From Leptolinea sp. UBA4782 (GTDB lineage Bacteria; Chloroflexota; Anaerolineae; Anaerolineales; Anaerolineaceae), in assembly GCA_002403095.1 (NCBI GenBank), contig DHHC01000021.1:1732-65731 (forward strand): 64,000 bases of DNA, read 5' to 3'. The notes below the pieces were generated by a model, which was not told where the DNA came from, did not search any database, and saw nothing but the letters and a program-made list of their open reading frames with translations. The position numbers were made by a program, and so were the translations under genes. This document shows, piece by piece, positions 1 through 15,649 of this stretch (positions are counted from its first letter, which is position 1; each line of letters begins with the position of its first letter).

Positions 1-230
1 AACAGCACCCCGGGCTTGTTTCCTTTTCCTGGCAATCGCGCCAGGAGGCTCGAACGGTTCTGACCGTGGTTGATCACACTTACTTCCAGCGCAAGGTCTT
101 CCAGGTACCTGGCGCAATATTCTGCCAGCCGGGTTTCATTGCCAGGCGGGTTGATGCTGTTAATTTTTACCAGCTTGCTGCAAAGCTGTGCCAGCGCCTG
201 TGGGTCAGGGTCAGTTAAAAATGCAGGCAT
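1..230 (-). CDS. N-terminal fragment of an M20-family metallopeptidase/deacylase (ArgE/DapE-like); gene runs off the left edge
   Basis: Own translation of the minus strand from ATG (230..228): MPAFLTDPDPQALAQLCSKLVKINSINPPGNETRLAEYCARYLEDLALEVSVINHGQNRSSLLARLPGKGNKPGVL, open to position 1. This resembles M20 N-termini. AAAGGA lies upstream. It is absent from the ORF track because there is no stop in the window. Confidence 0.5.
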   Translation of the reverse strand, partial: MPAFLTDPDPQALAQLCSKLVKINSINPPGNETRLAEYCARYLEDLALEVSVINHGQNRSSLLARLPGKGNKPGVL

Positions 231-283
231 ACCAGATCCTTTTCTATCTGTATGGGCAGAGACCGAAAACGATTGTAAACAGG

Positions 284-1135
284 TTACTCCCGGTAGCCGC
301 ACAGCGCCAGGGCGCGCGGTCCGGTATTGATCCCGAGCACCGGCCCGGTGATGTTAATCATGATTTCTGCGGGTTTCAATTCAGCCTGGACCTTCTCAGC
401 CAGTTTTTCGGCTTCGGTAGGGGCATTGCCGTGCAACACAGCCACATGCAGGGCACCTTCACCCCGCAAGCCTTCCAGGAATTTCTTATACAGCAGATCC
501 ACCATGCCGTTATGGGTGCGCGCCAGTCCGGCTGGCTCTACCCGCCCGGTTTCATGGTTAATGGAAACCACCGGCTTGATCTGCAGTTTTGTGCCGATCC
601 ACTTGGCAGCATCGCCGATCCGCCCGCCATGCTGCAGGAATTCCATACTCTCCATGCCGACGATCTGCACCAGCTTGCGGCGGACGGTATCCACGCTCTC
701 GAGAATGGCTTTTACATCCAGTCCAAGGCTGCGCTTGCGCACCGTTTCCAGCACCTGCCAGCCCAGGGGCATGGTAGGCCCTTTCGAGTCCACCACGCTG
801 ACGGGGATATTGACCAGCTTGGCGGCGTTCAGTGCCATCTGGTATGCTCCGCTCATGGCGCTGCTCACGGTCAGTACGATCAAGTTCTTCGCGCCTTCAA
901 GGATCGCCTCTTCGTACTTCTTCACAAAGTCTTGAACGGTTGCCTGGGAAGTGGTGGGCTTAACGCTTTCTGTTTCCAGCTTCTGGTAGAACTCAACCGG
1001 CTGCAGGGTCACACGGTCGATGAATTCACGCTCACCCCACAGAATATAGTGGGAGACTACTTTTATGCCATACTGGTCAATAATTTCCTGGGGAATATCG
1101 CAGGTACTGTCTGTAATCACACCGATATGTTGCAT
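284..1135 (-). CDS. DegV-family fatty-acid-binding protein
   Basis: Track ORF 284..1180. Start moved to the internal ATG at 1135 (MQHIGVITDSTCDIP...), which has GAAGGAG 6 nt upstream. DegV-type N-terminus and length (~283 aa). Confidence 0.85.
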   Translation of the reverse strand: MQHIGVITDSTCDIPQEIIDQYGIKVVSHYILWGEREFIDRVTLQPVEFYQKLETESVKPTTSQATVQDFVKKYEEAILEGAKNLIVLTVSSAMSGAYQMALNAAKLVNIPVSVVDSKGPTMPLGWQVLETVRKRSLGLDVKAILESVDTVRRKLVQIVGMESMEFLQHGGRIGDAAKWIGTKLQIKPVVSINHETGRVEPAGLARTHNGMVDLLYKKFLEGLRGEGALHVAVLHGNAPTEAEKLAEKVQAELKPAEIMINITGPVLGINTGPRALALCGYRE

Positions 1136-1218
1136 TATTGCTCCTTCAAAACCACCCGTAATAACAGAAATTATACCCAATGCGCAGGAGAATGCCAGAG
1201 TTTCTGGCGGCAGGGTGA

Positions 1219-2043
1219 TCAGCCCTCGCGGTAAAGGTCAGCCAGGTACTGTGCCAGTTCCCCCAGGTGGGTAAAAATGTAATCCGGCTGGTACGGCGAT
1301 CCAGGCAGGTCTTCTGTACGGGTTTCCCCGCTCAACACCAGGATCGAAGTGATGCCTGCCTCGCGCCCGATAGCGATATCGGTGTACAGGCGGTCGCCTA
1401 CCATCGCCAGGCATTGCAGCGGCAGGTTCATCTTCCTGGCTGCTGCTTCGGCGATCATGCGGTTCGGTTTGCCGATGATGATGTCCGGGCTGCGCCCGGT
1501 GGAGGCTGTCACTGCCGCCAGGAAAGCCCCTATATCCGGCATGAAACCGTGCTCAGTGGGACAATTGATATCCGGATGGGTGGCAATAAAGGGCAGCCCG
1601 GCACGCACAAAATCGCACAATTCCCACAGTTTTTCATACGTCAGGGTGGTATCAAAACCCAGCACCACTGCCTCAGGGTTTTGGTCATCCAGGGTGAAAC
1701 CCCGGCTGCTAAATTCATTTAGCAGTGATGGCGTACCTGCCACGAAAAGCCGTTTGCCGGGGTAGTGCCCTTCCATGTAAATAGCTGTGGCTTCACCGGA
1801 AGTCAGCACTTGCTCCTCGCTCACCCGCAGCCCCATGCGGGAGATTTTCTCAGCGTACAAGTGCCGGTCTTTAGATGAATTATTTGTCAAGAAGAGGTAA
1901 CCGATCCCAAGTTTCTGCAGGGTCTCAATAAACCCCAGCGACCAGGGAAACAGTTTTTCACCCAGGTAAAAAGTTCCATCCATATCGAGCATGAAACAGC
2001 GAATCTCGGTCAGCGGCTGGAGGGTTCGGTTTTGTCCAATCAT
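1219..2043 (-). CDS. HAD-superfamily subfamily IIA phosphatase (NagD/AraL-like)
   Basis: Track ORF 1219..2151. MLDMDGTFYLG (DxDGT nucleophile motif), LTNNS and VGDRLYTDI motifs. Start set to ATG 2043, 4 nt after the stop of the upstream gene. Confidence 0.85.
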   Translation of the reverse strand: MIGQNRTLQPLTEIRCFMLDMDGTFYLGEKLFPWSLGFIETLQKLGIGYLFLTNNSSKDRHLYAEKISRMGLRVSEEQVLTSGEATAIYMEGHYPGKRLFVAGTPSLLNEFSSRGFTLDDQNPEAVVLGFDTTLTYEKLWELCDFVRAGLPFIATHPDINCPTEHGFMPDIGAFLAAVTASTGRSPDIIIGKPNRMIAEAAARKMNLPLQCLAMVGDRLYTDIAIGREAGITSILVLSGETRTEDLPGSPYQPDYIFTHLGELAQYLADLYREG

Positions 2044-2047
2044 TGGA

Positions 2048-3310
2048 TCAGAATACCCCTTCCGGCTTTGGAATAGACAGGATGCGGCCCAGGTTGAGGA
2101 TGGTGAAATATTTGCGCAGGTATAAACCGTATTCCAGGGCTTCGTGCACATCGGTATCGGTCAGCCCAAGCTGGCTGGGATGGGTAGCACCGCCAACCTT
2201 CACCAGCAGGTCTTTGATCTCTGCTGAGGCCGGTACAGTGGCAGCAAATTGCTGGATCAGTTCCCAGCTGTCTCCAATCTTACGGCACATCCGGGCGAAT
2301 TGCTCCGGGGTTTGCTGGAGCGCTTTTTGCTGCACAGCCAGGATCAACTCAGCAGCGGGACCAAATACAGAACGGATACGGGCAACTTCATCCTCTGCAG
2401 ATGGCATACGGGCAGCCTGTAACCTCTCCAAAGCTTCTTCACGGCTGATCTGGCGCAACAATTCATAGTAGCGTGCAACCAGGATGGCTGCCAGCCCTAC
2501 TTTTGCGCCGTGGAACACGGGCGGCCGGTCTTCGCGCGCCAGCTTCATTTCCCAGTAATGCGAAATGACATGTTCAGCGCCTGAAGCCGGGCGTGAATTG
2601 CCCTGCAGGAGCATACAAATGCCTTCCTCGACCAGTCCTTCCATTAACTTATGCATGGCAGTTTCCCACTGGTCGTGCAGAACAGGTACCTGGTCCACAC
2701 AGGTTTGCAGCGCCCTGCGCGAGCGGTCAGCCAGCTCCTGGCTGAAGGCTTCCCCGGCGATGTGGTAGCTGATCGGCCAGTCTGCCAGGGCAGTGTACTT
2801 GCCGAACATGTCGCCGAAGCCCGAAGCGATCAGCGGGCGCGGGGCATGGGTCAGGGTGTCCAGGTCAGCAAAGATCCCTACCGGGGCGGCTGCCATGATG
2901 GTTTGCTTGTATTTCTGGATGGTCAGGGCGCAGCCGGTGGATGCGAAGCCGTCCACCGAAGCGGCAGTCGGCAGGGAAATAAAGGGCATGCCTGCCCGGT
3001 GGCTACAAAAACGCACGATATCGGTCAGGGTTCCTGAACCCACCCCAAGATAGACCCGCCGGCGCTCATCCGGCTCCAGCAGCACCTGGATGAGGTAGGT
3101 CTCATCCGGGGTCGCATTGCCCGGCAGCACAATGGTGCGCAGGCTGCGGTCAATTTTACGGATGGCTGTCTCAACCTCCCGTCCCAGGGCTTCGTATTCG
3201 TTTTCATCCGTCACCAGCGTGAATGCAGTGTATTGCTGCTTAGTAATGAATTTTTCGAGCTCGCTGACGGCGTTTTTGCCAATGTACACTTCGGGAAGCT
3301 TTACGGGCAT
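2048..3310 (-). CDS. AraM-type sn-glycerol-1-phosphate dehydrogenase (iron-containing ADH / dehydroquinate synthase-like superfamily)
   Basis: 420 aa. Blocks VGSGTLTDIVRF, PFISLPTAASVDGFAS, FADLD, GFGDMFGKYTALADWPIS and SRPASGAEHVISH match Bacillus subtilis AraM as I recall it. GGAGAT lies 5 nt before the ATG. Confidence 0.8.
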   Translation of the reverse strand: MPVKLPEVYIGKNAVSELEKFITKQQYTAFTLVTDENEYEALGREVETAIRKIDRSLRTIVLPGNATPDETYLIQVLLEPDERRRVYLGVGSGTLTDIVRFCSHRAGMPFISLPTAASVDGFASTGCALTIQKYKQTIMAAAPVGIFADLDTLTHAPRPLIASGFGDMFGKYTALADWPISYHIAGEAFSQELADRSRRALQTCVDQVPVLHDQWETAMHKLMEGLVEEGICMLLQGNSRPASGAEHVISHYWEMKLAREDRPPVFHGAKVGLAAILVARYYELLRQISREEALERLQAARMPSAEDEVARIRSVFGPAAELILAVQQKALQQTPEQFARMCRKIGDSWELIQQFAATVPASAEIKDLLVKVGGATHPSQLGLTDTDVHEALEYGLYLRKYFTILNLGRILSIPKPEGVF

Positions 3311-3378
3311 GGGGATCTCCGGTGATATCTGCCAGCCAGCGGGTCAGGGCAGGCTGGTTTTTGGATAAGTCAGGTGGC

Positions 3379-4056
3379 TCAGGCGCATTTCTTCAGCAGC
3401 CAATCCACCCAGTCTGCCAGACCCTCTTTGGTGTAGGAGGAGGTCTCGATCACAGGCAAGCCGGGGTGGATGCGGTGTGCCATTTCAATGCACAGGTCTT
3501 TGTCGAATTTCAGGTAAGGCAGCAGGTCAACTTTCGTCAGAACCATCACGGTGGCAAGGTGAAAAGCGAGCGGATACTTGATCGGTTTATCCTCGCCTTC
3601 GGTCACGCTCATCACCACCACTTTTTCCTGTTCGCCCAGGTCGTAGCCTGCCGGGCAAACCAGGTTGCCGACATTCTCAATGAACAGCAAGTCGATCTCG
3701 TCCAGCGGCAGCTGGGCCAGAGCCTTTTGCACCAGGGGCGCATCCAGGTGACAGTTGCCGATGGTATTGATCTGCACCACCGGGACACCGGTCTGGGCGA
3801 TGCGGTCGGCATCGTTGCTGGTTTGCTGGTCACCCTCGATGACGGCACAGCGCAGTTTTCCCCGCAGGGCTTTCAGTGTTTCCACCAGCAGGGTGGTCTT
3901 GCCAGAACCGGGCGAGCTGATCAGGTTGATGGTGTAAACACTTTTTTGGCGCAATAATTCCCTGTTTTCGGCAGCCACAACATCATTGGCTGCCAGGATC
4001 TCCTCTTCCAGCCTGACCACTTTCACTTCAGACGGGATAATTTTTTGCTCTGTCAT
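3379..4056 (-). CDS. hypB: Hydrogenase/urease nickel-incorporation GTPase HypB
   Basis: P-loop SPGSGKTTL, GNCHLDA and ENVGNLVCPA motifs. GAAGGAG RBS overlaps the end of hypA. Confidence 0.9.
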   Translation of the reverse strand: MTEQKIIPSEVKVVRLEEEILAANDVVAAENRELLRQKSVYTINLISSPGSGKTTLLVETLKALRGKLRCAVIEGDQQTSNDADRIAQTGVPVVQINTIGNCHLDAPLVQKALAQLPLDEIDLLFIENVGNLVCPAGYDLGEQEKVVVMSVTEGEDKPIKYPLAFHLATVMVLTKVDLLPYLKFDKDLCIEMAHRIHPGLPVIETSSYTKEGLADWVDWLLKKCA

Positions 4057-4062
4057 TATCTA

Positions 4063-4422
4063 CTACTCCTTCTCAGTCTTTTTGTCTCCCGAAATAGACC
4101 GCACCAGCATCTCGCGTCCTTTACGGATCTCAAATACTTCATCCTTGCAATTCGGGCAGCGCAGGTCTTCCATATCCCCGGGATACTCAATCAAACAATG
4201 GGTGCAGAACAACACCAGCGGGGGACGCTCGATCTCCAGTGTGCTGCCCTCGGCAACGGTGCCTTTGCTGACGAACTCCCAGGCAAACTCCAGGGCATGC
4301 GGTTCCACCCCGCTGAACTGGCCGATCTCAACCAGCAGGCTGGTCACCTTGATCATGTTATTCTGCTCAGCCACCTGGCGGGTGATCTGCATGATACTTT
4401 CGGCTATCCCTACTTCGTGTAT
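4063..4422 (-). CDS. hypA: Nickel metallochaperone HypA, proposed ATA initiation
   Basis: The track ORF starts at ATG 4392. The 10 in-frame codons upstream read I-H-E-V-G-I-A-E-S-I, the canonical HypA MHE... N-terminus. AAGGAG lies 6 nt before the ATA (4422..4420). There is no ATG/GTG/TTG between the ATA and the upstream in-frame TAG. Zn site CTHC...CPNC is present. Confidence 0.75.
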   Translation of the reverse strand: MHEVGIAESIMQITRQVAEQNNMIKVTSLLVEIGQFSGVEPHALEFAWEFVSKGTVAEGSTLEIERPPLVLFCTHCLIEYPGDMEDLRCPNCKDEVFEIRKGREMLVRSISGDKKTEKE

Positions 4423-4502
4423 GGCGGACTCCTTTATTGCCTTGCTGCCTTGCGGCTCTTTATTCTAATGCACAAAACCGTTTTTGCAAGACGGCAGCCG
4501 GG

Positions 4503-5549
4503 TTACACACCCATTACCTTGCGGATGTTCTCAGTAAATGGCGGGTAGATCACCCCGCGCTCGGTAATAATGGCGGTGATCAGCTCCGCCGGGGTAACGT
4601 CAAAAGCCGGGTTACAGACAGGGGTTCCTTCCGGGGCGACCATCTCCTTACCAATACGGATGATCTCGTCTGCGCCTCTCTCTTCGATCTCGATAAAATC
4701 GCCTGAGGGAATGTCCAGGTCAATGGTGCTGGTCGGTCCAACGATATAGAATGGCACATGGTGAGCTTTTGCTACCAGCGCCAGATTATAGGTGCCCACT
4801 TTATTGGCGGTATCACCATTGGCTGCCACCCGGTCGCAGCCCACCGTTACCAGGTCAACCCCCCGGTTTTTCATAATATAGCCGGAGGCGCCATCCACGA
4901 TCAGGGCATGCGGAATGCCCAGGTGTTTCAGTTCCCAGGCAGTCAGTCGGGCACCTTGCAGCCTCGGCCTGGTTTCATCCACGTACACAAAGACTTCCCG
5001 TCCGTGTTCATGGGCGGTGCGGATCAGGCCCAGCGCAGTGCCGTAATCCACTGTAGCCAGGGCGCCGGTATTGCAGTGGTGAATGAAGGCGGCTTTTTGG
5101 GGGACCAGGGACAGCCCGTTCAAGCCGATCTGCTTGTTGGTCTCGATATCTTCCTGCTCCATCTTCTGTGCTTCCGCAAGCACTGCAGCCCGCAACTCGC
5201 CAGGGGCGCCTGATTTTAGTAAAGCAACCCTGTTCAACACCCTGTCCACCGCCCAGAACAGGTTGACGGCAGTTGGACGGGCAGCTTTCAGCATTGCACC
5301 TGCCTGCTGCAGTTCTTCAAGCAGGTCTTGTGTATATTCGGCTGTGCTGTTTCGTGCTGCTATGGCAAGCCCGTAGGCTGCCGCCACCCCGATGGCAGGA
5401 GCGCCGCGCACCACCATCTGGCGGATGGCATCCGCCACCCCCGCCGGGGAATCGTAGTCCACATATACCAGCTCCGCGGGCAATGCCCGCTGGTCAAGCA
5501 GGCGTAGCTTACCCTCGGGGAGCCATTTCATCGTAAAGTAATCGCTCAT
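4503..5549 (-). CDS. mtnA: S-methyl-5-thioribose-1-phosphate isomerase (eIF-2B alpha/beta/delta family)
   Basis: 348 aa. LLDQRALP...VRGAPAIGVAAAYG and the C-terminal NPAFDVTP motif are typical of MtnA. Confidence 0.9.
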   Translation of the reverse strand: MSDYFTMKWLPEGKLRLLDQRALPAELVYVDYDSPAGVADAIRQMVVRGAPAIGVAAAYGLAIAARNSTAEYTQDLLEELQQAGAMLKAARPTAVNLFWAVDRVLNRVALLKSGAPGELRAAVLAEAQKMEQEDIETNKQIGLNGLSLVPQKAAFIHHCNTGALATVDYGTALGLIRTAHEHGREVFVYVDETRPRLQGARLTAWELKHLGIPHALIVDGASGYIMKNRGVDLVTVGCDRVAANGDTANKVGTYNLALVAKAHHVPFYIVGPTSTIDLDIPSGDFIEIEERGADEIIRIGKEMVAPEGTPVCNPAFDVTPAELITAIITERGVIYPPFTENIRKVMGV

Positions 5550-5553
5550 AATA

Positions 5554-7398
5554 TCACTTCCGGGGAGACTTCTCTTGAGAAAAATACATCGATTGGATGA
5601 AGCTGTCGGTAAACCCTGGATAAATGGTCAACTCAATATAGTTGACCTCCCCTGCTAGCTGGCAGGCGGCTGCCCGGTTCTTCTTTGAGAGCAGCATCAT
5701 CTTGGCGCCGGCGCCGGCTGCATTGCCCACCTGGTGATACCGTTCCAGCGGCACATCCGGGAACATGCCGATGCGCACCGCGCTGGACAGGTCGAGGAAG
5801 GTTCCGAAAGCCCCGGCAATGATCCAGCGGTCAACTTCTTCCGCCCCGATTCCGGCGGTTTGCAGCAATACGTTGATACCGGTCCGGATGGCACTCTTCG
5901 CAAGCTGGATCTCGTGCACATCCTTGCGCGTGATCACAATGTCCCGGCCAACCCCTGAATCACCGGCTTCAACCAGCACAAACTCAGAATTGTTGTTTGC
6001 CAGGCGCACCCGTTCGTGTTCCCGGTCCATAGCCCCGCGCCGGTCAATAATATGCGCATCCAGCATTTCAGCGATGCCGCTCAAAATGCCCGTACCGCAG
6101 ATACCCACTGCTGGCACCCTGCCGATGGTGGTTACATGGACATTCCCATCCTCGATGCGTACTTTTTCAATGGCGCCGGCTGAAGCCCGCATACCATCCT
6201 TGATATGTGCCCCTTCGAAAGCCGGACCGGATGCGGTGGAACAGGAAAAGATCCGTCCGCGGTCAATCAGGCTGATCTCGGTATTGGTGCCGATATCCAC
6301 CAGCACCACCCGCTGGTCTTTTACTTCAGGATAAATACTTAGCAAGGCAGAAGTGTGGTCTCCGCCGATATACCCGGCGATGTTAGCCGGTGTGTGCAGG
6401 AGCGCTCCGTCCGCCAGTGCCAGCCCAACCTCACCCGCCAGGATATCAAGCGGCTCTGCCACTGCAGGTACATAAGGCGCGGCCCCCAGCTGCCTGACTG
6501 GCAGCCGGCAGAAGAAATGGTGCATGGCAGTGTTCCCCACCAGCACTGCATCCACCACCTGGCTGCGCGCAATCCCGGCTTCGGTACACATGCCTGTAAT
6601 GGCTTGGTTGAGGGTTTCTACCAGGCGGGTTTGCAGCAGCGTCTGGTTCTCAATCCCCTGGTTGGCAAAGGCAATCCGGCTGACAATGTCTTCACCGAAC
6701 GCGATCTGGGGGTTCATCACCCCGGTTTTGGCTGCGGTGATGCCGCTGGCAAGGTCAACCAGGTACAGGGCAAGTTTGGTCGAACCCATATCCACAGCCA
6801 GCCCGTACAGCGGTGTTCCGACAGGCAGCGTTGCCACCAGTATTGCCGCTTCATGGCCAGGTCTGACAGCCAAACGTACTTTCCAATCCTGTGCACGAAG
6901 CATCTCGCTCAGGCGGGTAATCCCTGCCAGGTCTGCCTGCAGCGGGGATAACCCCATTTTCTTCACTTCCTGGTCAACCCGGGTGAAATCTGAGCGCAGG
7001 TCGGTATTGGCAGGCAGCGGGATTTCCAGGTCAAGCGGCACTACCGCCGGATCCAGGTCGAAAAGCCTGTCCTGCCCGTCCACCTGCAGGCGCTGCATTG
7101 CCGGCATGGATTCGGGCGGTATTTCTATCCTGACATCCCCGGCAGGGTAAGCCTGGCAGGCAAGCCGGTAACCGGCATTCAGCTGATCTGCGGTTAATGT
7201 CTCTGTTTCAACCTCAGTAACCGCGGACAGCCTGCCCTTGATCAGCCTCACCTGGCAGGTTCCACAGATGCCTGCCCCGCCGCACACTGCAGCAAGGTCT
7301 GCACCTGCATGCTGTGCAGCTGCAAGCAGGCTGACATCCCCTGGTACTTCGAGGCGCCTGCCAATGGGGGTGAATTCGACCTTGTATTGTCCAATCAT
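5554..7398 (-). CDS. Reductive activase of corrinoid enzymes (RACo-type): N-terminal plant-type 2Fe-2S ferredoxin plus ASKHA ATPase domain
   Basis: Track ORF 5554..7455. Start set to MIGQYKVEF (ATG 7398), which forms an ATGA overlap with the upstream stop. CGGAGICGTCQV...ACQA is a Fer2 motif. DMGSTK and DIGTNTE are ASKHA phosphate motifs. Confidence 0.8.
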   Translation of the reverse strand: MIGQYKVEFTPIGRRLEVPGDVSLLAAAQHAGADLAAVCGGAGICGTCQVRLIKGRLSAVTEVETETLTADQLNAGYRLACQAYPAGDVRIEIPPESMPAMQRLQVDGQDRLFDLDPAVVPLDLEIPLPANTDLRSDFTRVDQEVKKMGLSPLQADLAGITRLSEMLRAQDWKVRLAVRPGHEAAILVATLPVGTPLYGLAVDMGSTKLALYLVDLASGITAAKTGVMNPQIAFGEDIVSRIAFANQGIENQTLLQTRLVETLNQAITGMCTEAGIARSQVVDAVLVGNTAMHHFFCRLPVRQLGAAPYVPAVAEPLDILAGEVGLALADGALLHTPANIAGYIGGDHTSALLSIYPEVKDQRVVLVDIGTNTEISLIDRGRIFSCSTASGPAFEGAHIKDGMRASAGAIEKVRIEDGNVHVTTIGRVPAVGICGTGILSGIAEMLDAHIIDRRGAMDREHERVRLANNNSEFVLVEAGDSGVGRDIVITRKDVHEIQLAKSAIRTGINVLLQTAGIGAEEVDRWIIAGAFGTFLDLSSAVRIGMFPDVPLERYHQVGNAAGAGAKMMLLSKKNRAAACQLAGEVNYIELTIYPGFTDSFIQSMYFSQEKSPRK

Positions 7399-8093
7399 GG
7401 CGTTTCCAGTGCCTGGTGATAGCTGCACATGCTGTTCATCGAGCAGAACTTGCATGGCTTGCCGCCCCTCTGGATTTGCCCACCCAGGCCGATGGCCATA
7501 GAGGCGGATTTACGCGGCAGCATCATGCCGCTAGGCAAGAGCCTGACCAGCTGCGGATCTGGCTGCAGGGCAGCAAACACCTGGGGCTGCCCCTGCTCAA
7601 CGCTCCACCCCAACATGCCGGGGCTGAAAGCAATAGTGGAAGATTGTCCTGCTGCCTCTGCCTGCTGCTCGATCTTCTGGCAATACCAGAAGGAAAGCAT
7701 ATCAACTGCCGCGTTCGCCAGGCCGTCCAGCGCCAGGCTTAGTGCCATATCGCCGTCATGCCCGGCCTGGTGAATTTTTTCCTCAAGCGCGGAACCAATC
7801 GTAACGATTGCCAGGGCTATCCTGTCTGCCCCGTCCAGCTGTTCGCTGATCAATTCCCCTGCCAGTGCGTATATTCCGTTCAGGAAGATACCCGTCTGTT
7901 TGTCCTTGCTGACCGAAAAAGTATCATGAATAACAGCAGGGCTTACCAGCCCTGCCCCAACATCGATCGCTTTTTCTGCCAGGTCCACCAGGACGGGACG
8001 GCGCACACGCACTACGGCCGGATCTGCCCCCTGACCCCGCAGGACCATATCTGCTGTGAAGTCCAGAGGAATATCTGTGTAGATTTGTGCCAA
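7395..8093 (-). CDS. Methionine synthase (MetH) activation-domain protein
   Basis: 232 aa. Overall resemblance to the stand-alone B12-dependent methionine synthase activation domain (SPG..GW, LP..MM.P..S blocks), with a C-terminal CxxC...C tail. TTG start with GAGG 7 nt upstream. Confidence 0.65.
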   Translation of the reverse strand: MAQIYTDIPLDFTADMVLRGQGADPAVVRVRRPVLVDLAEKAIDVGAGLVSPAVIHDTFSVSKDKQTGIFLNGIYALAGELISEQLDGADRIALAIVTIGSALEEKIHQAGHDGDMALSLALDGLANAAVDMLSFWYCQKIEQQAEAAGQSSTIAFSPGMLGWSVEQGQPQVFAALQPDPQLVRLLPSGMMLPRKSASMAIGLGGQIQRGGKPCKFCSMNSMCSYHQALETP

Positions 8094-8102
8094 ACTTAGC
8101 CT

Positions 8103-8999
8103 CTATGATGCAGCATCCAGCCGGGATACCGTGGCTGCAATGGCTGCCAGGTGTTCCGGGGATGTACCGCAGCACCCGCCTACCAGGCTGGCACCGGCTT
8201 CTACCCAGGCCGGGACATTATCGCCCATGTCTTGCGGGCTGACATCGTAAACGGTATTGCCGCTTTCGTCCACCCTCGGAAGGCCGGCATTGGGTTTAAA
8301 CCAGATCGGCAGGCTGGTAGCAGAACGCAGCTCTCTGAGCGCTTTCATGTTCTCATCCAGGCTGCGCCCGCAATTGATTCCGAGGATATCCACCTTGAAT
8401 TGCTGCAGCTCTGCAGCTGCCTGGGCGGGTTTTACCCCCATCATCGTGCGCCCGGCGCGCTCATAGCTGAAGGAGACCGCCAGAGGCAGGCTGGAGACTG
8501 AGCGCACCCCTTTCACCGCAGCCAAAGCCTCGCCGAGGTCGAACTGGGTCTCGATCACAAGCAGGTCCACCCCGGCTGCTGCCAGGCTGACAGCCTGGGC
8601 TGCGTAGGATGCTTCAGCGTCTGCCGGATCCAGGGTTCCCAACGGGGAAAGCATTTGCCCGGTTGGGCCAAGAGAACCAGCCACAAAGACATCCGTCCCT
8701 TCGGCCGCCTGCTTTGCCAGTGCAGCTGCCTTGCGGTTGATCTCATCGGCTTTATCCTGCAGGTTAGCATGCTGCAGCCGGTAGCGGTTGCCATTGAACG
8801 AACAGGTCAGGATGACATTCGCTCCCGCCTGGATGAAATCCTGGTGGAGCTGAAGGATCTTTTCCGGATGCTCGAGCATCCAGCTTTCACTTAACTGGCC
8901 GCTTTCCAGTCCGCGCGCTTGCAGGTTCGTGCCGGTCGCACCATCCAGCACGAGCACTTTGCCGGCTGCCAGTGTGGCTAAAATATCTTTTGGGGGCAT
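8103..8999 (-). CDS. Homocysteine S-methyltransferase-domain protein (MetH Hcy-module-like)
   Basis: 298 aa. LDGATGTNL N-terminus. Zn-ligand cysteines occur in GINCGRS and VGGCCGTSPEH. Confidence 0.85.
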   Translation of the reverse strand: MPPKDILATLAAGKVLVLDGATGTNLQARGLESGQLSESWMLEHPEKILQLHQDFIQAGANVILTCSFNGNRYRLQHANLQDKADEINRKAAALAKQAAEGTDVFVAGSLGPTGQMLSPLGTLDPADAEASYAAQAVSLAAAGVDLLVIETQFDLGEALAAVKGVRSVSSLPLAVSFSYERAGRTMMGVKPAQAAAELQQFKVDILGINCGRSLDENMKALRELRSATSLPIWFKPNAGLPRVDESGNTVYDVSPQDMGDNVPAWVEAGASLVGGCCGTSPEHLAAIAATVSRLDAAS

Positions 9000-9023
9000 G
9001 TTTCTCTTTTCCCTGAGAGCAGA

Positions 9024-9662
9024 TTACGATGCTGCCAGGCTCTTGGCCAGGGCAACTGCCCGGCTGGCATCCGGCGCAAACCCGTCAGCGCCGATTTCGT
9101 GGGCATACTGGCTGGTCACCGGCGCTCCACCGATCAGAACCTTCACTTTGCTGCGCAGCCCGGCTTCTTCCAGGGCTTCGATTGTAGTCTTCATGTTCGG
9201 CATGGTGGTGGTTAAAAGGGCAGACATAGCCACAAAATCAGCTTCATTCTCGCGCACGGCATCCACGAACTTTTGGGGAGGCACATCCGAGCCGAGGTCA
9301 ACAATCTCAAATGCGGCGCCTTCGAGCATCATGCTCACCAGGTTCTTACCAATATCATGCAGGTCGCCTTTTACCGTTCCTATAATGATCTTGCCGGCAG
9401 ATTTGTAGCTTTCCTTTACCAGGCGTGGCTTGAGGATGCTCAACCCGGCTTGCATTGCCTTGGCGGAGATCAGCATTTCGGGCACGAAATACTCGCCCTC
9501 TTCAAATAGCTTACCCACCTCGGTCATGGCAACAATCATACCTTCGTTCAGAATCAAAGCAGGATCCACACCTGCGTCCAGGGCTGTTTGCACTGCTGCA
9601 GCTGACTTATCGGCTGCCCCATCAATGATGGCGTTATAAATGGCTTTTAAGCTGTCTTCCAT
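9024..9662 (-). CDS. Cobalamin-binding corrinoid protein (MtmC/MtbC/MttC-like)
   Basis: 212 aa. B12-binding motifs GDLHDIGKN (DxHxxG), SALLTTT (SxL) and LIGGAP (GG). AAGGAG lies 8 nt before the ATG. Confidence 0.9.
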   Translation of the reverse strand: MEDSLKAIYNAIIDGAADKSAAAVQTALDAGVDPALILNEGMIVAMTEVGKLFEEGEYFVPEMLISAKAMQAGLSILKPRLVKESYKSAGKIIIGTVKGDLHDIGKNLVSMMLEGAAFEIVDLGSDVPPQKFVDAVRENEADFVAMSALLTTTMPNMKTTIEALEEAGLRSKVKVLIGGAPVTSQYAHEIGADGFAPDASRAVALAKSLAAS

Positions 9663-9801
9663 AAGGTCCGCTCCTTTTCCACAATTATACTAGCAACCCC
9701 GGCCTGGCCGGGTGCTGCCGTGTTTTCCATATTTATGCACTTCATGCCAATCAGCGCGGCCTTATTTACCCGCTGATTCGAAAAAAACAGAAAACTTCCT
9801 G

Positions 9802-11175
9802 CTACACTTCCAGGCCCAGGCTGCGCACTTCCTGCTTGACTTCATCGTACATGCGCTGCCACCCAGCAACCGGTTCAAGCGTTTCCAGGTTGTATGCCTG
9901 GTCAAAGCGCACACCCGGGTTGCCTTCCGGCAGGGAGAAAATGGGCTCATAGCGCTGCAGGAGCCGTGAAACCAGCTCGTTCACCTGGGCAGCATTCAAA
10001 CCCTGGCGGGTGACTGCATGCCCCACCTCGCCCATCCAGCGCACTTCCAGTCCGGTACCGTTGGGCAGGGCGCCGTCCGCCGCACCAACCCCTTCCAGGT
10101 GGGCGCCACTGTAAGAGATCACGGCGGCATTGGCTGCCACTTCATATAACAGCTCGCAGGTCAGTGCGCCCGATTTGGGGAAGATGTCTGCCACGATGAT
10201 GGCAGGCGAATTACGCGCAAAAGCCCGTGCCACCACGCCTTCAACCCACATCACCCCCCGGGTGGATGTGGCTACATGCCGGATGTGGATGGGATGCAGC
10301 AGGTGATAGTCTGCCTGGCATACCAGGTTTGCCAGCATGAAAGAAGCCGCCTGTACCACCGCTGCCCCAGGTGCATTCCCGGCCAGTCCGCCGACCATCA
10401 CGCATGCCAGCGAGGCGTTGCGCGCCCCGTAGGTCTTGCCGTTGGCAGCCCGCACCAGGCTGCCGCGGTCGATCATCAATTCGTTCAGCATCGGAACCAG
10501 GTGCGCATCCGTTGGGCGCAGGAAAGCCGGGTTCATCACGCACAGGTCGCCCAGCTCTGAGACACTGCTCTGGGCGGCCAGCAATCCCATGCCCGAGCGC
10601 CCTAGCTTGCGCAGCCCATCACGCAGCAGCGTCAGCTCGTTGCGAGTGGCATACACTTCTTCCGGCTCGCCGGAAACCACGGGATGACCCTTGTAAGTAA
10701 CCAGCGAACCGCAGGTTGCCAGGTCTACAATGGGTTCTTTCATCCAGCTCATCACCATCGGCTGGAAGATTTCTTCAGGCGTCGGGACTCCCGGGTTGCC
10801 AGCCCACACAGCGGGAGGGTTGGTATCCCTTTCTTTTCTCGCACGCAGCACCCGTGCATCACTGCCTTCGCCGAAAACCAGTTCACGCGGGGCGTTCTGC
10901 AAGCCTTCCTCGATCTCAGCACGGCTGAAGCGGATCACCTTACTGGTGGAAACATTATAAACACCCAGCGTTTCTGCCAGTTCAAGCGCCGCCTGAAATA
11001 CCCGGTCTACCAGGGCATCATCCAGCGGGATAATCTCCTGCGAATCCCACTTGATGTCATATTTCGAAACCAGGCTGCGGGTGGTCATAACCACCCCTTC
11101 AAAATCCCAGTCTTCTTTCTTGACCGTTTTTCCCGTACGTGACATTTCAAGTATATCGAGGAACTCTGTGGTCAT
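9802..11175 (-). CDS. MtmB-family (monomethylamine methyltransferase-like) protein without pyrrolysine codon
   Basis: Uninterrupted 457 aa. Collinear similarity over the whole length to Methanosarcina MtmB as I recall it (DWD, FGEGSDA..R.RK, GRSGMG, PIHIRH..TSTRG, GLEVRWMGEVG, C-terminal LGLEV). AGGAG lies 8 nt before the ATG. Confidence 0.8.
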   Translation of the reverse strand: MTTEFLDILEMSRTGKTVKKEDWDFEGVVMTTRSLVSKYDIKWDSQEIIPLDDALVDRVFQAALELAETLGVYNVSTSKVIRFSRAEIEEGLQNAPRELVFGEGSDARVLRARKERDTNPPAVWAGNPGVPTPEEIFQPMVMSWMKEPIVDLATCGSLVTYKGHPVVSGEPEEVYATRNELTLLRDGLRKLGRSGMGLLAAQSSVSELGDLCVMNPAFLRPTDAHLVPMLNELMIDRGSLVRAANGKTYGARNASLACVMVGGLAGNAPGAAVVQAASFMLANLVCQADYHLLHPIHIRHVATSTRGVMWVEGVVARAFARNSPAIIVADIFPKSGALTCELLYEVAANAAVISYSGAHLEGVGAADGALPNGTGLEVRWMGEVGHAVTRQGLNAAQVNELVSRLLQRYEPIFSLPEGNPGVRFDQAYNLETLEPVAGWQRMYDEVKQEVRSLGLEV

Positions 11176-11352
11176 AGTATCTCCTGAAAGTAATGTGGAT
11201 TTAAGTTTACCCTAAACCGCGTAACAATTCTGATTGAAAGGAGTATTATATCTATACTTAATTAGTTTTCATGTATACTAACAATAAGCAGTACCTTACA
11301 GACCCGAAAAGATACTCTGTTCAGAAATTAAAACCCAAAGGAGGTGGTGAAA

Positions 11353-11427
11353 GTGGCTTTATACATTCTGGTGAACGTGGTTATCCTGGTAGTGCTGGGC
11401 CTGATCGCCCGTTTCTTCAGTAAATGA
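11353..11427 (+). CDS. Candidate 24-aa single-pass membrane peptide (M)ALYILVNVVILVVLGLIARFFSK
   Basis: Own reading, below the track cutoff. GTG start preceded by AAAGGAGGTGGTGA, a strong SD. A hydrophobic core is followed by a basic tail. It ends 48 nt before the ECF S-component gene. Confidence 0.35.
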   Translation: MALYILVNVVILVVLGLIARFFSK

Positions 11428-11475
11428 AACCTGTAATACTTTCGTATCAAATCAATCTAGAGGAGGAGTAATTCA

Positions 11476-12042
11476 ATGGAAAAACGTGGTGGTTGGGATT
11501 TTAAATATAAAACTCGCGATATTGTCATAATCGCGGTTATTGCAGCAATTGCAGGTGTGGTCAATACCGGTATTGGCAACCTGTGGTACCTGGCAAATAC
11601 ATCGCTTGGCCCAATGGGTGGTGCATTGCTGCAAGGCGCATTCATGTGGGCTTATGTCCTGGTCATGTGGCTGGTCCGCCGTCCCGGTGCTGCCATTTTA
11701 CTTGGCATTATTGAAACAACCGTAGAGGTTTTAATGGGCAATGCCTCTGGTATCGGCACCCTGGGTTGGGGCCTTTTCCAGGGCCTGGGCGTTGAGGTAA
11801 TTATGGCCATCAGCGGTTACAAAAAATTCGGCCTGCTGGCTGCCATGATGGCTGCTGCGGGCGCTTCACAATTCGGTACCGTCTGGACCGCCATTCTCTT
11901 CGGCTGGGATCCAGCTTACGCCAAAGATGTCTGGCTGGCAATCCCGATCAACTTGATCTCGGGTCTTGTGATTAGTGGTTTGCTGGGGTATTATTTAGCC
12001 AAGGCGCTGGCAAAAACAGGTTTGATCCGCTCGGCTCAATAA
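11476..12042 (+). CDS. ECF transporter substrate-capture (S) component, YkoE family
   Basis: 188 aa and polytopic. RRPGAAILLGIIETTVEVLMGNASG, FQGLGVEV and LISGLVISGLLGYYLAKALAKTGLI match B. subtilis YkoE blocks as I recall them. GGAGGAG RBS. Confidence 0.8.
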   Translation: MEKRGGWDFKYKTRDIVIIAVIAAIAGVVNTGIGNLWYLANTSLGPMGGALLQGAFMWAYVLVMWLVRRPGAAILLGIIETTVEVLMGNASGIGTLGWGLFQGLGVEVIMAISGYKKFGLLAAMMAAAGASQFGTVWTAILFGWDPAYAKDVWLAIPINLISGLVISGLLGYYLAKALAKTGLIRSAQ

Positions 12043-12118
12043 CCTGAATTTAATTTTCCAGATCGGCGGGAAAGGGATGTGTCACCGTTCACCCTTTCCC
12101 GCTTTTCGGGACTAAACC

Positions 12119-13876
12119 ATGACTGAAACCAATATTATCGCCGAACTACGCAACGTTTCTTACACTCACTGGAACCACCAGGAACCCACGTTAAAGAATG
12201 TTACATTGCAGCTGCAAAGGGGAACACTTTCGGTCCTGGTTGGACCGGGAGGCAGCGGCAAGTCAACCCTGTGCGACCTGTTAAATGGCCGCATTCCCAA
12301 GCTGTTGGGCGGCCAGTTGACCGGCGAGGTGATTATCGACGGGCTGGATACCGCAAAGGTGGAAGTGAAAGAGCTCACCAAGCGGGTGGGGTCGGTCTCG
12401 CAGGATCCCGAAACCATGTTTGCCACCCTGTACGTCGAAGATGAGATCGCCTTTGGACCGGAAAACCTGCTGGTAGATGCGGATGAAATTCGCCTTACTG
12501 TGGAAGAACTGCTGGATGTGACCCAACTGCGCCCCCAACGGCGCAACCTGGTATGGCACCTTTCCGGCGGTCAGGTGCAAAAGCTGGGGCTGGCTACCGC
12601 CCTGGCTATGAAACCCTCCCTCATCATCCTGGATGAGCCCACCGCCAACCTGGACCCCATCGCCACCCTCAGCGTGTATGATATGGTCCTTAAATTACGC
12701 GAACAGGGTATGACCATCCTGCTGGTCATTCGGGAACTGGATGAATTCCTATCCTGTGCTGACCAGGTGCTCCTTTTGCAGGAAGGAACCCTCCTCACCT
12801 CCGGAACACCCCAGGAGGTGCTCAAATCTCACGGGGAAGCTATGTTCACCTCCCTGGGGGTTTGGCTGCCGGAGACGACCGAGATCGGCCTGACCCTCCG
12901 GAACCGGCACAATATCCAGATGCGGGACATTCCTATCACTGTACCGGAGACCATTGCCTTGCTGCAGGACAATCACCTGCTGGATCAGCCCCTGGTGCTC
13001 CCCGTCCGGGAAGCACAGCCTGCCACAGTACAGCCGGAACTGCTGGTTGAAGCCAAAAACCTCAGCTTCCGCTATGCGGAAGGCACGCATGCCCTAAAAG
13101 ATGTTTCTTTCAACATCCATGCTGGCGAGTTGCTGGCAATCGTCGGGCGCAACGGGGCAGGCAAGAGCACCCTGGCCAAGCTGCTGGTTGGCCTGCTTAA
13201 ACCGCAAGCCGGCAGCCTGACCTTGTTTGACAAACCGGCGGCACAGTGGAAGGTGGAAGACCTTGCCAACCACATTGCCCTGGTCTTCCAGAATCCCGAG
13301 CACCAGTTCCTTACTGACAAAGTGTGGGACGAGATCGACTACAGCCTGCTGGCGCGCAACGTAACCGACCTGGAAGTGCGCAAAGAGACCATCCAGGAAT
13401 CGCTAACCCGCCTGGGACTGGAAGCTGTGGTGGATAAGCACCCGTTCTCCTTGAGCGCCGGAATGAAACGCCGCCTGGGCGTTGCCACCATGCTGGTTTG
13501 CCGCCCGCGCATCCTGCTGGTGGATGAACCCACTTATGGGCAGGATAAACAGATGACGCAAACCCTGATGCACTTCATGGAAGAGATCCGGGCAGAAGGG
13601 ATAGCTGTAGTGATGATCACCCATGACATGCGCCTGGTGCAGGAGTATGCCCAGCGCGTGATCGTAATGAGCGAAGGGCAATTGCTGTTCGACGGCCAGC
13701 CCCAAGGCCTGTTCAACCAGGATGAGATCCTGCAGGCAGCCAACCTGCGCAAGACAGTTCTGCATGACCTGGTGAGTGAACTGACCGCCCGGGGCGTGCT
13801 TATCAGCGGCGAGGTGCGCACCACTTCTGACCTGCTGACAGCGCTCACCACCCGCGAGGAGGTGCAGAATGGCTGA
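12119..13876 (+). CDS. Fused double ATPase of an ECF transporter (YkoD/EcfA-EcfA')
   Basis: 585 aa with two ABC cassettes: Walker A GPGGSGKST and GRNGAGKST, signatures LSGGQ and LSAGM, Walker B ILDEP and LLVDEP. Confidence 0.9.
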   Translation: MTETNIIAELRNVSYTHWNHQEPTLKNVTLQLQRGTLSVLVGPGGSGKSTLCDLLNGRIPKLLGGQLTGEVIIDGLDTAKVEVKELTKRVGSVSQDPETMFATLYVEDEIAFGPENLLVDADEIRLTVEELLDVTQLRPQRRNLVWHLSGGQVQKLGLATALAMKPSLIILDEPTANLDPIATLSVYDMVLKLREQGMTILLVIRELDEFLSCADQVLLLQEGTLLTSGTPQEVLKSHGEAMFTSLGVWLPETTEIGLTLRNRHNIQMRDIPITVPETIALLQDNHLLDQPLVLPVREAQPATVQPELLVEAKNLSFRYAEGTHALKDVSFNIHAGELLAIVGRNGAGKSTLAKLLVGLLKPQAGSLTLFDKPAAQWKVEDLANHIALVFQNPEHQFLTDKVWDEIDYSLLARNVTDLEVRKETIQESLTRLGLEAVVDKHPFSLSAGMKRRLGVATMLVCRPRILLVDEPTYGQDKQMTQTLMHFMEEIRAEGIAVVMITHDMRLVQEYAQRVIVMSEGQLLFDGQPQGLFNQDEILQAANLRKTVLHDLVSELTARGVLISGEVRTTSDLLTALTTREEVQNG

Positions 13877-14654
13877 AGGTCAGCATAGTTTACGGTACAT
13901 TGAGCGCGATGCCGTCATGCACCGCATTTACCCGCTGGTGAAACTGGCCTGGGTTTTCATGGTTGCAGCCGGACTGTTCCTGTACAAAACCCCCTTATCC
14001 GGCGCCATCAATTTTGTGATCCTGCTGCTGCTGACTGTCTTCCTGGGGAAAATACCCCTGCGCGAGATCCTAAGCAGCTCCAAATTCATCCTGGGGCTCG
14101 GGTTGATCCTGATGTTTTTCCATTTAATCGCTGACCCCGGAAATGTTGTTTACCAGCTTGGACCTTTGAAAGTGACGGATACCGGCTTGATCCAGGGTCC
14201 AATCTTTTTCTTCCGCCTATCAGTGGTCGTGCTGGCAAGTTTTGTGCTGATCTGGACAACCGACACGCGCGACCTGATGGTTTCCCTTGCCAAGGCGGGC
14301 ATACCCTACCGGTTCGCCTTTGCCGTATTCCTGGCGCTGCGCTTCCTGCCGCTTGTTCAGCAGGAGGTAGATGCCGTCCGCTCAGCCCACGCCATCCGCG
14401 GCAGGGCTTCGAAATCTTCGCTCGGTCACCGCATCAAGCTCTGGCAGCGCTATATGTTCACCGTCCTGGTGAATGGCCTTCGCAAGGCCGAAGCAGCAGC
14501 CGCTGCGCTGGAATGCCGCGCCTTTGGCAGCAGCCCGACACGGACGTATGTGAAGGATGTCCATTTTCACGCCGTTGACCTGGTCCTATTGATCGTAACT
14601 GCTGCAATTATCACCGTCCTGGTCCTGAGGGAAAGGACCGGTTTCCTGTTCTAG
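13869..14654 (+). CDS. ECF transporter transmembrane (T) component (EcfT/CbiQ/YkoC family)
   Basis: 261 aa and polytopic. AIRGRA-type coupling helix motif (AHAIRGRAS). 8-nt overlap with the ATPase gene. Confidence 0.85.
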   Translation: MAEGQHSLRYIERDAVMHRIYPLVKLAWVFMVAAGLFLYKTPLSGAINFVILLLLTVFLGKIPLREILSSSKFILGLGLILMFFHLIADPGNVVYQLGPLKVTDTGLIQGPIFFFRLSVVVLASFVLIWTTDTRDLMVSLAKAGIPYRFAFAVFLALRFLPLVQQEVDAVRSAHAIRGRASKSSLGHRIKLWQRYMFTVLVNGLRKAEAAAAALECRAFGSSPTRTYVKDVHFHAVDLVLLIVTAAIITVLVLRERTGFLF

Positions 14655-14673
14655 GGGGCAGCGCTAATCCAAC

Positions 14674-15576
14674 ATGCGGGTCTTTTTCGCTGATCATATA
14701 ACGGTGCCTTTACCGGACAACCACCGCTTCCCTATGGCAAAGTATGCCATGCTGCATCATGCCCTTGTTGCCGAAGGTATATTACAGCCAGAGGAACTGG
14801 TTCCGCCTGAGCCAGCCACCCGGGCGCAGGTGACCGTGGCTCACACCCCGGAGTATTTCGATGCCTTTGTGGATGGCAGCCTGGCGCCCGAGGTCATCCG
14901 CGAAATCGGCATCCCCTGGAGCCCTGAATTTGTTCAGCGTACCCTGGCAAGCATGGGCGGATCTATCGCAGCCGCCAGGCAGGCCTTGAAAGACGGATTC
15001 TCCGGCAACCTGGCCGGGGGTACGCATCACGCTCTGGCAGACCGCGGAGGGGGATTTTGCGTTTTCAACGACATTGCCATTGTCAGCAAGCTGCTGCTGC
15101 AGGAAGGCGCTGCAGAGCGGATTGCTGTGGTTGACCTGGATGTCCACCAGGGGAATGGCACCGCCGCTATCCTGGCAGGCGAACCGCGCACGTTCCTGTT
15201 CAGTATGCACGGACAGAAGAATTTCCCATTCCGCAAAGTACCCTCCACCCTCGATATCGGCCTGCCGGACAATGCCTCGAATACAGTATTCCTTACTTCA
15301 CAACAGACAGGGTTGGATGAAGTACGCGCTTTCTCCCCGGACCTGGTCATTTACCAGGCTGGTGTCGATCCGCTGGAAACCGACCGCCTGGGACGCCTGA
15401 ACCTGACCATGGACGGCCTGGCAGAGCGCGACAGGATGGTACTGCAGTTGTGCCGGGATACCCGCATCCCTGTCGTCATGCTGATGGGCGGCGGTTACGC
15501 CAAACCGATCGAGGATACTGTCCTGGCGCATGTCCAATCCTACAGGATAGCCCGCCAGGTGTTTTCCAGCCTGTAA
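14674..15576 (+). CDS. Histone deacetylase-family amidohydrolase (class II HDAC / AcuC-like)
   Basis: 300 aa. GGTHHA, GFCVFND and VDLDVHQGNGT motifs. Confidence 0.85.
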   Translation: MRVFFADHITVPLPDNHRFPMAKYAMLHHALVAEGILQPEELVPPEPATRAQVTVAHTPEYFDAFVDGSLAPEVIREIGIPWSPEFVQRTLASMGGSIAAARQALKDGFSGNLAGGTHHALADRGGGFCVFNDIAIVSKLLLQEGAAERIAVVDLDVHQGNGTAAILAGEPRTFLFSMHGQKNFPFRKVPSTLDIGLPDNASNTVFLTSQQTGLDEVRAFSPDLVIYQAGVDPLETDRLGRLNLTMDGLAERDRMVLQLCRDTRIPVVMLMGGGYAKPIEDTVLAHVQSYRIARQVFSSL

Positions 15577-15649
15577 GCTCAGCTACACTACATTCCTTGC
15601 CGGTTACGGTATAATCCCGGCAGGGGAAAATCATCCCGAGGGAATATCT

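Follow-up and report, generated by a model that had tools for sequence, protein, structure and literature searches.

The window analysed here, a stretch of 64,000 nucleotides from Leptolinea sp. UBA4782 (Chloroflexota, Anaerolineaceae; assembly GCA_002403095.1, contig DHHC01000021.1, positions 1,732 to 65,731 of the forward strand), carries the genes of the nickel chaperones HypA and HypB directly in front of those of an AraM-type dehydrogenase and a HAD-IIA phosphatase (referred to as araM and HAD). The original prediction interpreted this arrangement as an operon in which HypAB would metallate the dehydrogenase. The comparative data, drawn from roughly 100 related genomes, instead indicate what would be an ordinary, lineage-specific juxtaposition and give a dehydrogenase client of HypAB low priority; hypAB and araM-HAD are probably two independent modules brought side by side by an ancestral rearrangement, neither of which serves the other. 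The genes concerned are the following:

4063..4422, minus strand: hypA, nickel metallochaperone, 119 codons (TIGR00100, 100.9 bits against a cut-off of 88.1; PF01155, 106 bits against 28.9)
3379..4056, minus strand: hypB, nickel-binding GTPase, 225 amino acids (TIGR00073, 266.6 bits against 121.2)
2048..3310, minus strand: AraM-type (Fe-ADH_2) dehydrogenase, putative sn-glycerol-1-phosphate dehydrogenase, 420 amino acids (PF13685, 119.5 bits)
1219..2043, minus strand: HAD-IIA (NagD/AraL/YutF-like) phosphatase, 274 amino acids (TIGR01460, 153.8 bits against 100.15; PF13344 and PF13242)
284..1135, minus strand: degV, fatty-acid-binding DegV/FakB family, 283 amino acids (TIGR00762, 256.4 bits against 99.7)

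The predicted coordinates, families and gap lengths of these five genes (6, 68, 4 and 83 nt between successive genes from hypA to degV, all on one strand) are borne out by the sequence and the profile scores.

Seen from the dehydrogenase, the linkage to hypAB is exceptional. One scan yielded 80 species-representative loci with a dehydrogenase orthologue (41-94% identity), mostly from Anaerolineae and Caldilineae and in a few cases from Spirochaetota, of which 70 extend at least 1.2 kb and 52 at least 5 kb upstream; their neighbouring genes were clustered and cluster representatives were checked against Pfam (homologous loci are designated below by L numbers). A hypA or hypB gene lies within ~10 kb of araM at two of the 80 loci, L011 (94%) and L007 (65%), and hypAB is absent from the other 78, 70 loci of the survey being long enough upstream to show it. 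The neighbours found elsewhere are an FGGY kinase (33 loci), DeoR, class II aldolase, RpiB/LacAB, a GlpD-like FAD dehydrogenase, a sugar ABC transporter and a HAD-IIA phosphatase, and these same families surround araM in the ara operon of Bacillus subtilis. A HAD-IIA gene directly adjoins araM in 10 of the 80 loci and lies within the ~10-kb flanks in 25; the orthologue of the HAD gene is adjacent in L007, L008, L010, L044 and L065. The survey therefore ascribes some evolutionary depth to the dehydrogenase-phosphatase pair and none to its link with hypAB. The idea of an AraM/AraL pair conserved outside any arabinose context holds insofar as the pairing is real, recurs in Chloroflexota and has no arabinose context here; the joining of this pair to hypAB, for which a survey across Chloroflexota had been suggested, is limited to a single clade.

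This clade becomes apparent when gene contexts of HypB homologues are taken at decreasing identity. Defined by a HypB identity of at least 70%, it comprises seven lineages (the window, L011, L087, L007, L088, L089 and L098). All except L089 have in common a block encoding a corrinoid protein, a homocysteine S-methyltransferase-family protein, a protein of unknown function, RACo, MtnA, HypA, HypB, AraM and HAD in this order. On the corrinoid side the gene order of the window recurs in L088 and L089, in L087 with the exception of the MtmB gene, and partially in L007, L011 and L098. Within the block mtnA and hypA are adjacent in all seven lineages and hypB and araM in six, such that conservation of the mtnA-hypA junction is no poorer than that of the hypB-araM junction and adjacency to hypAB therefore does not single out the dehydrogenase. 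The deviating case is L089 (GCA_964511135.1; HypB 73%; 8484-11620), where the HAD-IIA gene comes immediately after mtnA-hypA-hypB and araM has left no trace; this lineage has lost araM and kept hypAB and the HAD gene.

The gene past HAD varies within the clade and is degV, a PhoU-like gene, DUF4332 or another gene. As degV is displaced by three or four genes in L087 and L088 and absent after HAD in L098, it falls outside the conserved block, and the lipid-related pathway that had been suggested on account of DegV is only weakly supported. The complete order hypA-hypB-araM-HAD-degV does not rise above background synteny, as it is confined to one clade, in which at least five upstream genes are conserved with it, and found at none of the seven outgroup hypAB loci.

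In these outgroup loci (L090-L093 and L095-L097; HypB identity 60-67%) hypAB keeps different company. All seven sampled relatives carry a gene for a cysteine-rich protein of ~380 residues with a C-terminal 2x[4Fe-4S] domain, termed Fer4 protein in the following. The gene lies directly before hypA in six loci, forming Fer4-hypA-hypB units in L090 (8498-10672), L091 (8393-10735), L092 (~8494-10708), L095 (4593-6814), L096 (8489-10738) and L097 (1-1686), and 6 kb off in L093 (3036-4169, with hypB at 10001); in L092 its alignment is split into three pieces, and the gene there may be broken. In L090, L095, L096 and L097 the interval between the Fer4 stop codon and the start of hypA is 2-13 nt, which suggests translational coupling, and a Fer4 homologue from an Anaerolineaceae third-party-annotation (TPA) metagenome-assembled genome (MAG), P0299, shows the usual Fer4-hypA-hypB-MFS arrangement. 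Neither araM nor a hydrogenase gene was found at the seven outgroup loci, and their downstream genes are mutually unrelated. The original proposal that HypAB metallates the dehydrogenase is thus not supported, given a linkage restricted to one clade, an L089 locus devoid of araM, an equally well kept mtnA-hypA junction and a different constant neighbour of hypAB outside the clade.

The recurring Fer4-hypA-hypB unit raises the possibility of a nickel protein family so far unrecognised, as hinted at by the isoprene reductase (isr) operon discussed below. In front of the ferredoxin motifs the family has seven invariant residues, C193, C195, C213, H251, C264, C266 and C267, contained in a cysteine-rich motif CYC...C...H...CNCCxCxC that follows an uncharacterised N-terminal region. 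An AlphaFold model of the Fer4 protein is confident (pLDDT 88); in a Foldseek search against the PDB it matched the ferredoxin domain and, weakly, a winged-helix domain, the cysteine-rich middle domain being unmatched, and no similarity to CODH (carbon monoxide dehydrogenase), HCP or any nickel site in the PDB was detected. The family is not known to bind nickel. One might ask whether HypAB serves the Fer4 protein, as a nickel redox protein, throughout the Anaerolineae subfamily, its gene having been relocated in the clade of the window. Despite the constant association with hypAB, the narrow spacing and the invariant Cys/His set in a domain with no counterpart in the PDB, we regard this as unlikely, since among the 120 Fer4 homologues listed none was matched to a known contig of the clade and no homologue is present at the clade loci themselves. 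Additional encouragement comes from the report that 73% of 988 IsrA homologues are encoded within five genes of hypA and that the isr genome is devoid of hydrogenase and hypCDEF (PMC10134865), although the likeness of the Fer4 protein to the isr proteins is one to the description given in that paper.

The window was also searched for a nickel enzyme of its own. A Pfam scan of the plausible coding open reading frames (ORFs) of at least 200 amino acids, which left aside a minus-strand ORF at 62327..62968 (213 amino acids) and shadow ORFs overlapping called genes, detected neither a hydrogenase, urease or CODH nor LarA, acireductone dioxygenase or PcrB. A tblastn search with Escherichia coli HycC, HycD, HycE, HycG, HycI and HypA to HypF against the window and ~1.5 Mb of related loci matched hypA and hypB alone, hypB being the sole match above threshold within the window. 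Both searches confirm the earlier statement that the 64 kb contain no hydrogenase, urease or CODH gene, and neither a nickel enzyme nor a hypCDEF gene was found in the ~10 kb past degV in the same locus of other assemblies (L001). A connection of mtnA to nickel via acireductone dioxygenase was considered and rejected, as there is no cupin/acireductone dioxygenase gene in the window and this enzyme needs O2, which fits an anaerobe poorly.

We propose the following scenario for the origin of the locus. A rearrangement in the ancestor of one Leptolinea-like lineage of Anaerolineae would have set hypAB beside araM-HAD, and a slowly rearranging block would then have held both modules together. The first module, hypA-hypB, would be a small movable unit which in related Anaerolineae is placed nearly always directly after a Fer4 gene and away from hydrogenase genes. 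Its client would most likely be encoded elsewhere in the genome and might be the Fer4 protein, a [NiFe]-hydrogenase or both; [NiFe]-hydrogenase clusters have been described in all six Anaerolineae genomes of one study (PMC4877987). The second module, the AraM-type dehydrogenase and the HAD-IIA phosphatase, would be the counterpart of araM/araL in B. subtilis, the dehydrogenase presumably making or using a polyol phosphate and the phosphatase stripping off the phosphate.

Several observations weigh against this scenario of independent modules. Neither a hydrogenase gene nor hypCDEF was found within 10 kb of any hypAB examined, and a Fer4 homologue is missing from the 64-kb window and from every clade locus, the latter absence counting equally against the Fer4 protein as the client. 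Moreover, the hypB-araM junction has been kept down to the deeply diverged L098 (AraM 52.5%, HypB 70% identity) while the genes past HAD changed repeatedly, which would fit selection for the arrangement.

This persistence, in six of the seven clade lineages, is also one incentive to consider that HypAB was recruited in this lineage to put Ni2+ into an AraM-type glycerol-1-phosphate (G1P) dehydrogenase, the operon as a whole being devoted to making glycerol-1-phosphate or glycerol. The genes lie on the same strand with short gaps, and a terminator scan found no terminator-like site between hypA, hypB, araM and HAD including the 68-nt hypB-araM spacer, the RNA fold of which (z = 0.29) gives no hint of structure. 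The usual Fer4 neighbour is gone from the hypAB locus of the clade, and AraM/EgsA of B. subtilis shows its highest in-vitro activity with Ni2+ (Guldan 2008, cited by PMC10221552). A precedent for a non-hydrogenase partner is provided by the isr operon of Acetobacterium wieringae, whose genome contains no [NiFe]-hydrogenase (PMC10134865). Nevertheless, we judge the recruitment very unlikely. It would leave 78 of 80 araM species loci without the chaperones nearby and L089 with hypAB and HAD in the absence of araM, and it has no explanation for an mtnA-hypA junction at least as conserved as the hypB-araM junction. The candidate metal ligands D167, H247 and H267 of the dehydrogenase are, moreover, identical in hypAB-linked and unlinked orthologues, and a solvent-accessible mononuclear Asp/His/His site of the kind found in this superfamily normally needs no GTP-driven chaperone. 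B. subtilis has AraM but neither nickel chaperones nor an obvious nickel importer, i.e. its enzyme functions without such a chaperone (PMC10221552). The variant according to which HypAB was co-opted for the dehydrogenase after the loss of the adjacent iron-sulfur partner in the Leptolinea-like lineage has, in our estimation, a similarly slim chance of being correct. If true, HypAB would have a third type of client besides hydrogenase and urease, and a mononuclear nickel dehydrogenase would for the first time be known to depend on a chaperone; this would widen the range of nickel chaperone clients and lend the disputed nickel dependence of AraM a significance in vivo.

The evidence for joint transcription is indirect and consists of the common strand, the short gaps and spacers devoid of terminator-like sites and stable structure. 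Two promoter-like sites deserve mention:

4462..4489, minus strand: TTGCAA-16-TAGAAT in the 80-nt mtnA-hypA spacer (consensus match alone)
1198..1170, minus strand: CTGGCA-17-TATAAT before degV (consensus match)

Since the promoter and terminator counts do not exceed the shuffled expectation (for promoter-like sites 5 in the region compared with 3.3 +/- 1.6), such sites are to be taken as weak hints. An Rfam scan of 1..16000 gave zero matches, hence no riboswitch or leader precedes hypA or araM. The hypB-araM spacers of the clade, compared at approximate coordinates, could be aligned between the window and L011 and no further. The genes hypA, hypB, araM and HAD are probably co-transcribed in this lineage; the transcript possibly extends to mtnA and the upstream corrinoid methyltransferase genes, and degV probably constitutes a separate unit.

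The designation of the dehydrogenase as AraM-type is fair because of its best PDB match and its invariant residues. This match is 9h4x (E 2.6e-68, 42% identity over 316 residues), which was deposited as 'glycerol-1-phosphate dehydrogenase [NAD(P)+]' and which is provisionally taken to be B. subtilis AraM. Archaeal G1P dehydrogenase structures, 4rgq and 5fb3, follow with E ~1e-29. Together with H251, the metal ligand candidates mentioned above and the nucleotide motif G91-S92-G93-T94 (GSGT) are invariant in 14 orthologues, and the ligand and motif columns align with GFGDM, GGEHHISH and LHGAKVG of 9h4x. The NCBIfam equivalog NF002022 scores 192.9 bits, under its cut-off of 413; this model is presumably centred on archaeal EgsA, and bacterial AraM-type proteins may all score below the cut-off. 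On these grounds the enzyme probably interconverts dihydroxyacetone phosphate (DHAP) and glycerol-1-phosphate or a similar polyol phosphate, whereby nickel and zinc as the metal of such a dehydrogenase are not distinguishable by sequence. The HAD-IIA gene starts 4 nt past the dehydrogenase stop codon. Its product remains below the cut-offs of narrower HAD models (TIGR01457, 186.8 versus 247.65; TK1734 family, 193 versus 475), as does DegV below that of the FakB1 equivalog (166 versus 350).

Concerning the physiological role of the dehydrogenase, its neighbours elsewhere are informative. Recurrent clusters are ABC-ABC-FGGY-AraM-GlpD-like, DeoR-AraM-aldolase II and FGGY-SDR-FGGY-aldolase II-AraM-RpiB. 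Carbohydrate/polyol clusters of this kind house the orthologues of most Chloroflexota (among L012-L086, for example in L042, 9000-13000, L070, 2900-6000, and L050, 5100-11300) and therefore suggest that the AraM-type dehydrogenase might act in catabolism rather than, or as well as, in the supply of G1P for lipids. A separate observation concerns Ca. Flexifilum affinis (L075 10001-15825), where the genes after araM encode an uncharacterised 197-aa protein, MtnA, a transketolase in split form and a RuBisCO-like protein. This set looks like a methylthioadenosine/5-deoxyribose salvage cluster and represents a second case of araM/mtnA proximity, independent of the clade of the window; a connection of araM to such salvage routes through DHAP is conceivable.

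With regard to the chaperones, HypB binds nickel and GTP; the metal then passes to the M-H-E site at the HypA N-terminus, and HypA in turn supplies it to a client. Both proteins score above their NCBI equivalog cut-offs and, by profile and motifs, the pair is therefore assigned as a canonical nickel chaperone pair. HypB contains the P-loop GSPGSGKT, the motifs GNCH and NLVCP and the CH...C metal site of the G domain, and its N-terminus has neither CxxCGC nor a His-rich stretch; in the tblastn search HypB of the clade relatives showed 52-57% identity to the G domain of E. coli HypB, which the window copy matches too. The HypA translation has the two CxxC motifs of the structural zinc site, C-T-H-C and C-P-N-C.

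The start of hypA is unusual. Its codon 1 at 4422..4420 is the non-canonical ATA, followed by H2-E3, and the M-H-E site exists only if this codon initiates with formylmethionine; the first canonical start, an ATG at 4392, would delete the nickel motif. The putative ribosome binding site is placed as follows:

4429..4434, minus strand: Shine-Dalgarno sequence AAGGAG of hypA, 6 nt upstream of the ATA codon (read from the sequence)

At the position of HypA Met1, all 13 lineages compared have an ATH (Ile) codon (ATT in eight, ATA in four and ATC in one), and ATG, GTG or TTG in none, at HypA identities down to 40%. The codon always precedes CAC GAR (His-Glu), and a GGAG-type Shine-Dalgarno sequence is found 6-7 nt 5' of it in most lineages, being not clear in L089, L091 and L097. 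An in-frame stop occurs at most 10 codons upstream in seven lineages, and six of these have no canonical start codon between it and the ATH codon. The start positions outside the window are 8888 in L011, 9637 in L087, 8909 in L007, 9636 in L088, 9600 in L089, 9652 in L090, 9628 in L091, 9657 in L092, 5752 in L095, 9657 in L096, 642 in L097 and 3807 in L098. Initiation at ATH is thus argued from the Shine-Dalgarno sequence, the upstream in-frame stops and the conservation, and the pattern has the appearance of a conserved non-AUG start codon (AUH) of hypA across an Anaerolineae subfamily. As a consequence of the ATH start, gene callers give truncated, extended or missing hypA genes; in L089 the gene was missed entirely by the gene finder. 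The AUH start and the Fer4-hypA-hypB unit are by-products of the present analysis that may matter more than the dehydrogenase question.

Upstream of hypA the following genes of the block and its surroundings were assigned:

4503..5549, minus strand: mtnA, S-methyl-5-thioribose-1-phosphate isomerase family (TIGR00512, 426 bits against 279)
5554..7455, minus strand: RACo-type corrinoid activase (reductive activase), upstream part of the syntenic block
7395..8093, minus strand: conserved protein of 232 amino acids with no Pfam or NCBIfam match, 61-nt overlap with the start of the RACo ORF
8103..8999, minus strand: homocysteine S-methyltransferase-family protein, upstream part of the syntenic block
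9024..9662, minus strand: corrinoid protein, upstream part of the syntenic block
9802..11175, minus strand: MtmB-family methyltransferase, 457 amino acids, upstream end of the corrinoid set
12119..13876, plus strand: fused double ABC ATPase of an ECF (energy-coupling factor)-type transporter
13869..14654, plus strand: CbiQ-type T component of the same transporter

The corrinoid methyltransferase set (5554..11175, minus strand) is syntenic in the clade, and mtnA begins 4 nt past the RACo end. The MtmB-family ORF of 457 amino acids has no in-frame stop and hence no pyrrolysine. Divergent from this cluster lies the ECF-type transporter (11476..14654, plus strand) with a PF09819 (YkoE-like) substrate component, a family of ECF substrate components predicted to carry thiamine precursors. 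This PF09819/ABC/CbiQ transporter (11.5-14.7 kb) was considered as a nickel importer for HypAB and set aside, as there is no evidence for nickel and it adjoins the corrinoid genes.

Proteins identical to those of the window were found in MAG GCA_002328635.1 as well as in several metagenomes, and a MAG of 'Leptolinea sp.' shows 94% identity. The block is likewise carried by the genomes of contigs CAWCAN010000003.1 and CAYZCO010000022.1. In other assemblies of the same species some reading frames differ: hypB is in two pieces of 150 and 79 amino acids in L005 (9272-9932), and degV is shortened in L005 (12176-12945; an older oil-sands tailings assembly) and in L006 (12176-12883; GCA_002328635.1). 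These differences in L005 and L006 represent either assembly errors or real strain variation.

Comparison with known systems places the two modules in separate contexts. AraM/EgsA of B. subtilis is a Ni2+-stimulated sn-glycerol-1-phosphate dehydrogenase and AraL a HAD-IIA phosphatase. In the operon araABDLMNPQ-abfA both families are adjacent on one strand as they are here, and the FGGY kinase, class II aldolase and sugar ABC transporter genes next to araM in other Chloroflexota belong to the families of AraB, AraD and AraNPQ. The window differs in its reversed order, with the dehydrogenase preceding the phosphatase in contrast to araL-araM, in the lack of sugar genes, in a dehydrogenase longer by ~25 residues than B. 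subtilis AraM, and in the presence of hypAB upstream of araM, B. subtilis having no hyp genes.

With hypABCDE of E. coli and HypAB of Helicobacter pylori, where the pair serves urease as well as hydrogenase, the chaperones of the window share a HypB above the family cut-off with its CH...C site and a HypA with H2-E3 and two CxxC motifs. Unlike these, they are accompanied by neither hypCDEF nor hydrogenase genes in the 64-kb window or in the ~10-kb flanks of each hypAB relative; the N-terminal high-affinity CxxCGC site is missing from HypB, and ATH is the apparent start codon of hypA.

The isr operon of Acetobacterium wieringae ISORED-2 has the composition isrA-hypA-hypB-ferredoxin-hypA (PMC10134865). 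In contrast to this operon, hypAB of the window has no such iron-sulfur partner beside it and adjoins a dehydrogenase of the dehydroquinate synthase fold instead of a flavin/iron-sulfur oxidoreductase. Both systems resemble each other in a hypAB pair located away from hydrogenase genes and beside another redox gene, and in a HypB, of 225 amino acids, of the type without an N-terminal metal site. Compared by description, the Fer4 partner of the outgroup loci also resembles the uncharacterised N-terminal domain common to IsrA and the isr 'ferredoxin', and its make-up is that of the latter, an N-terminal region of ~270-290 residues followed by a 4Fe-4S domain.

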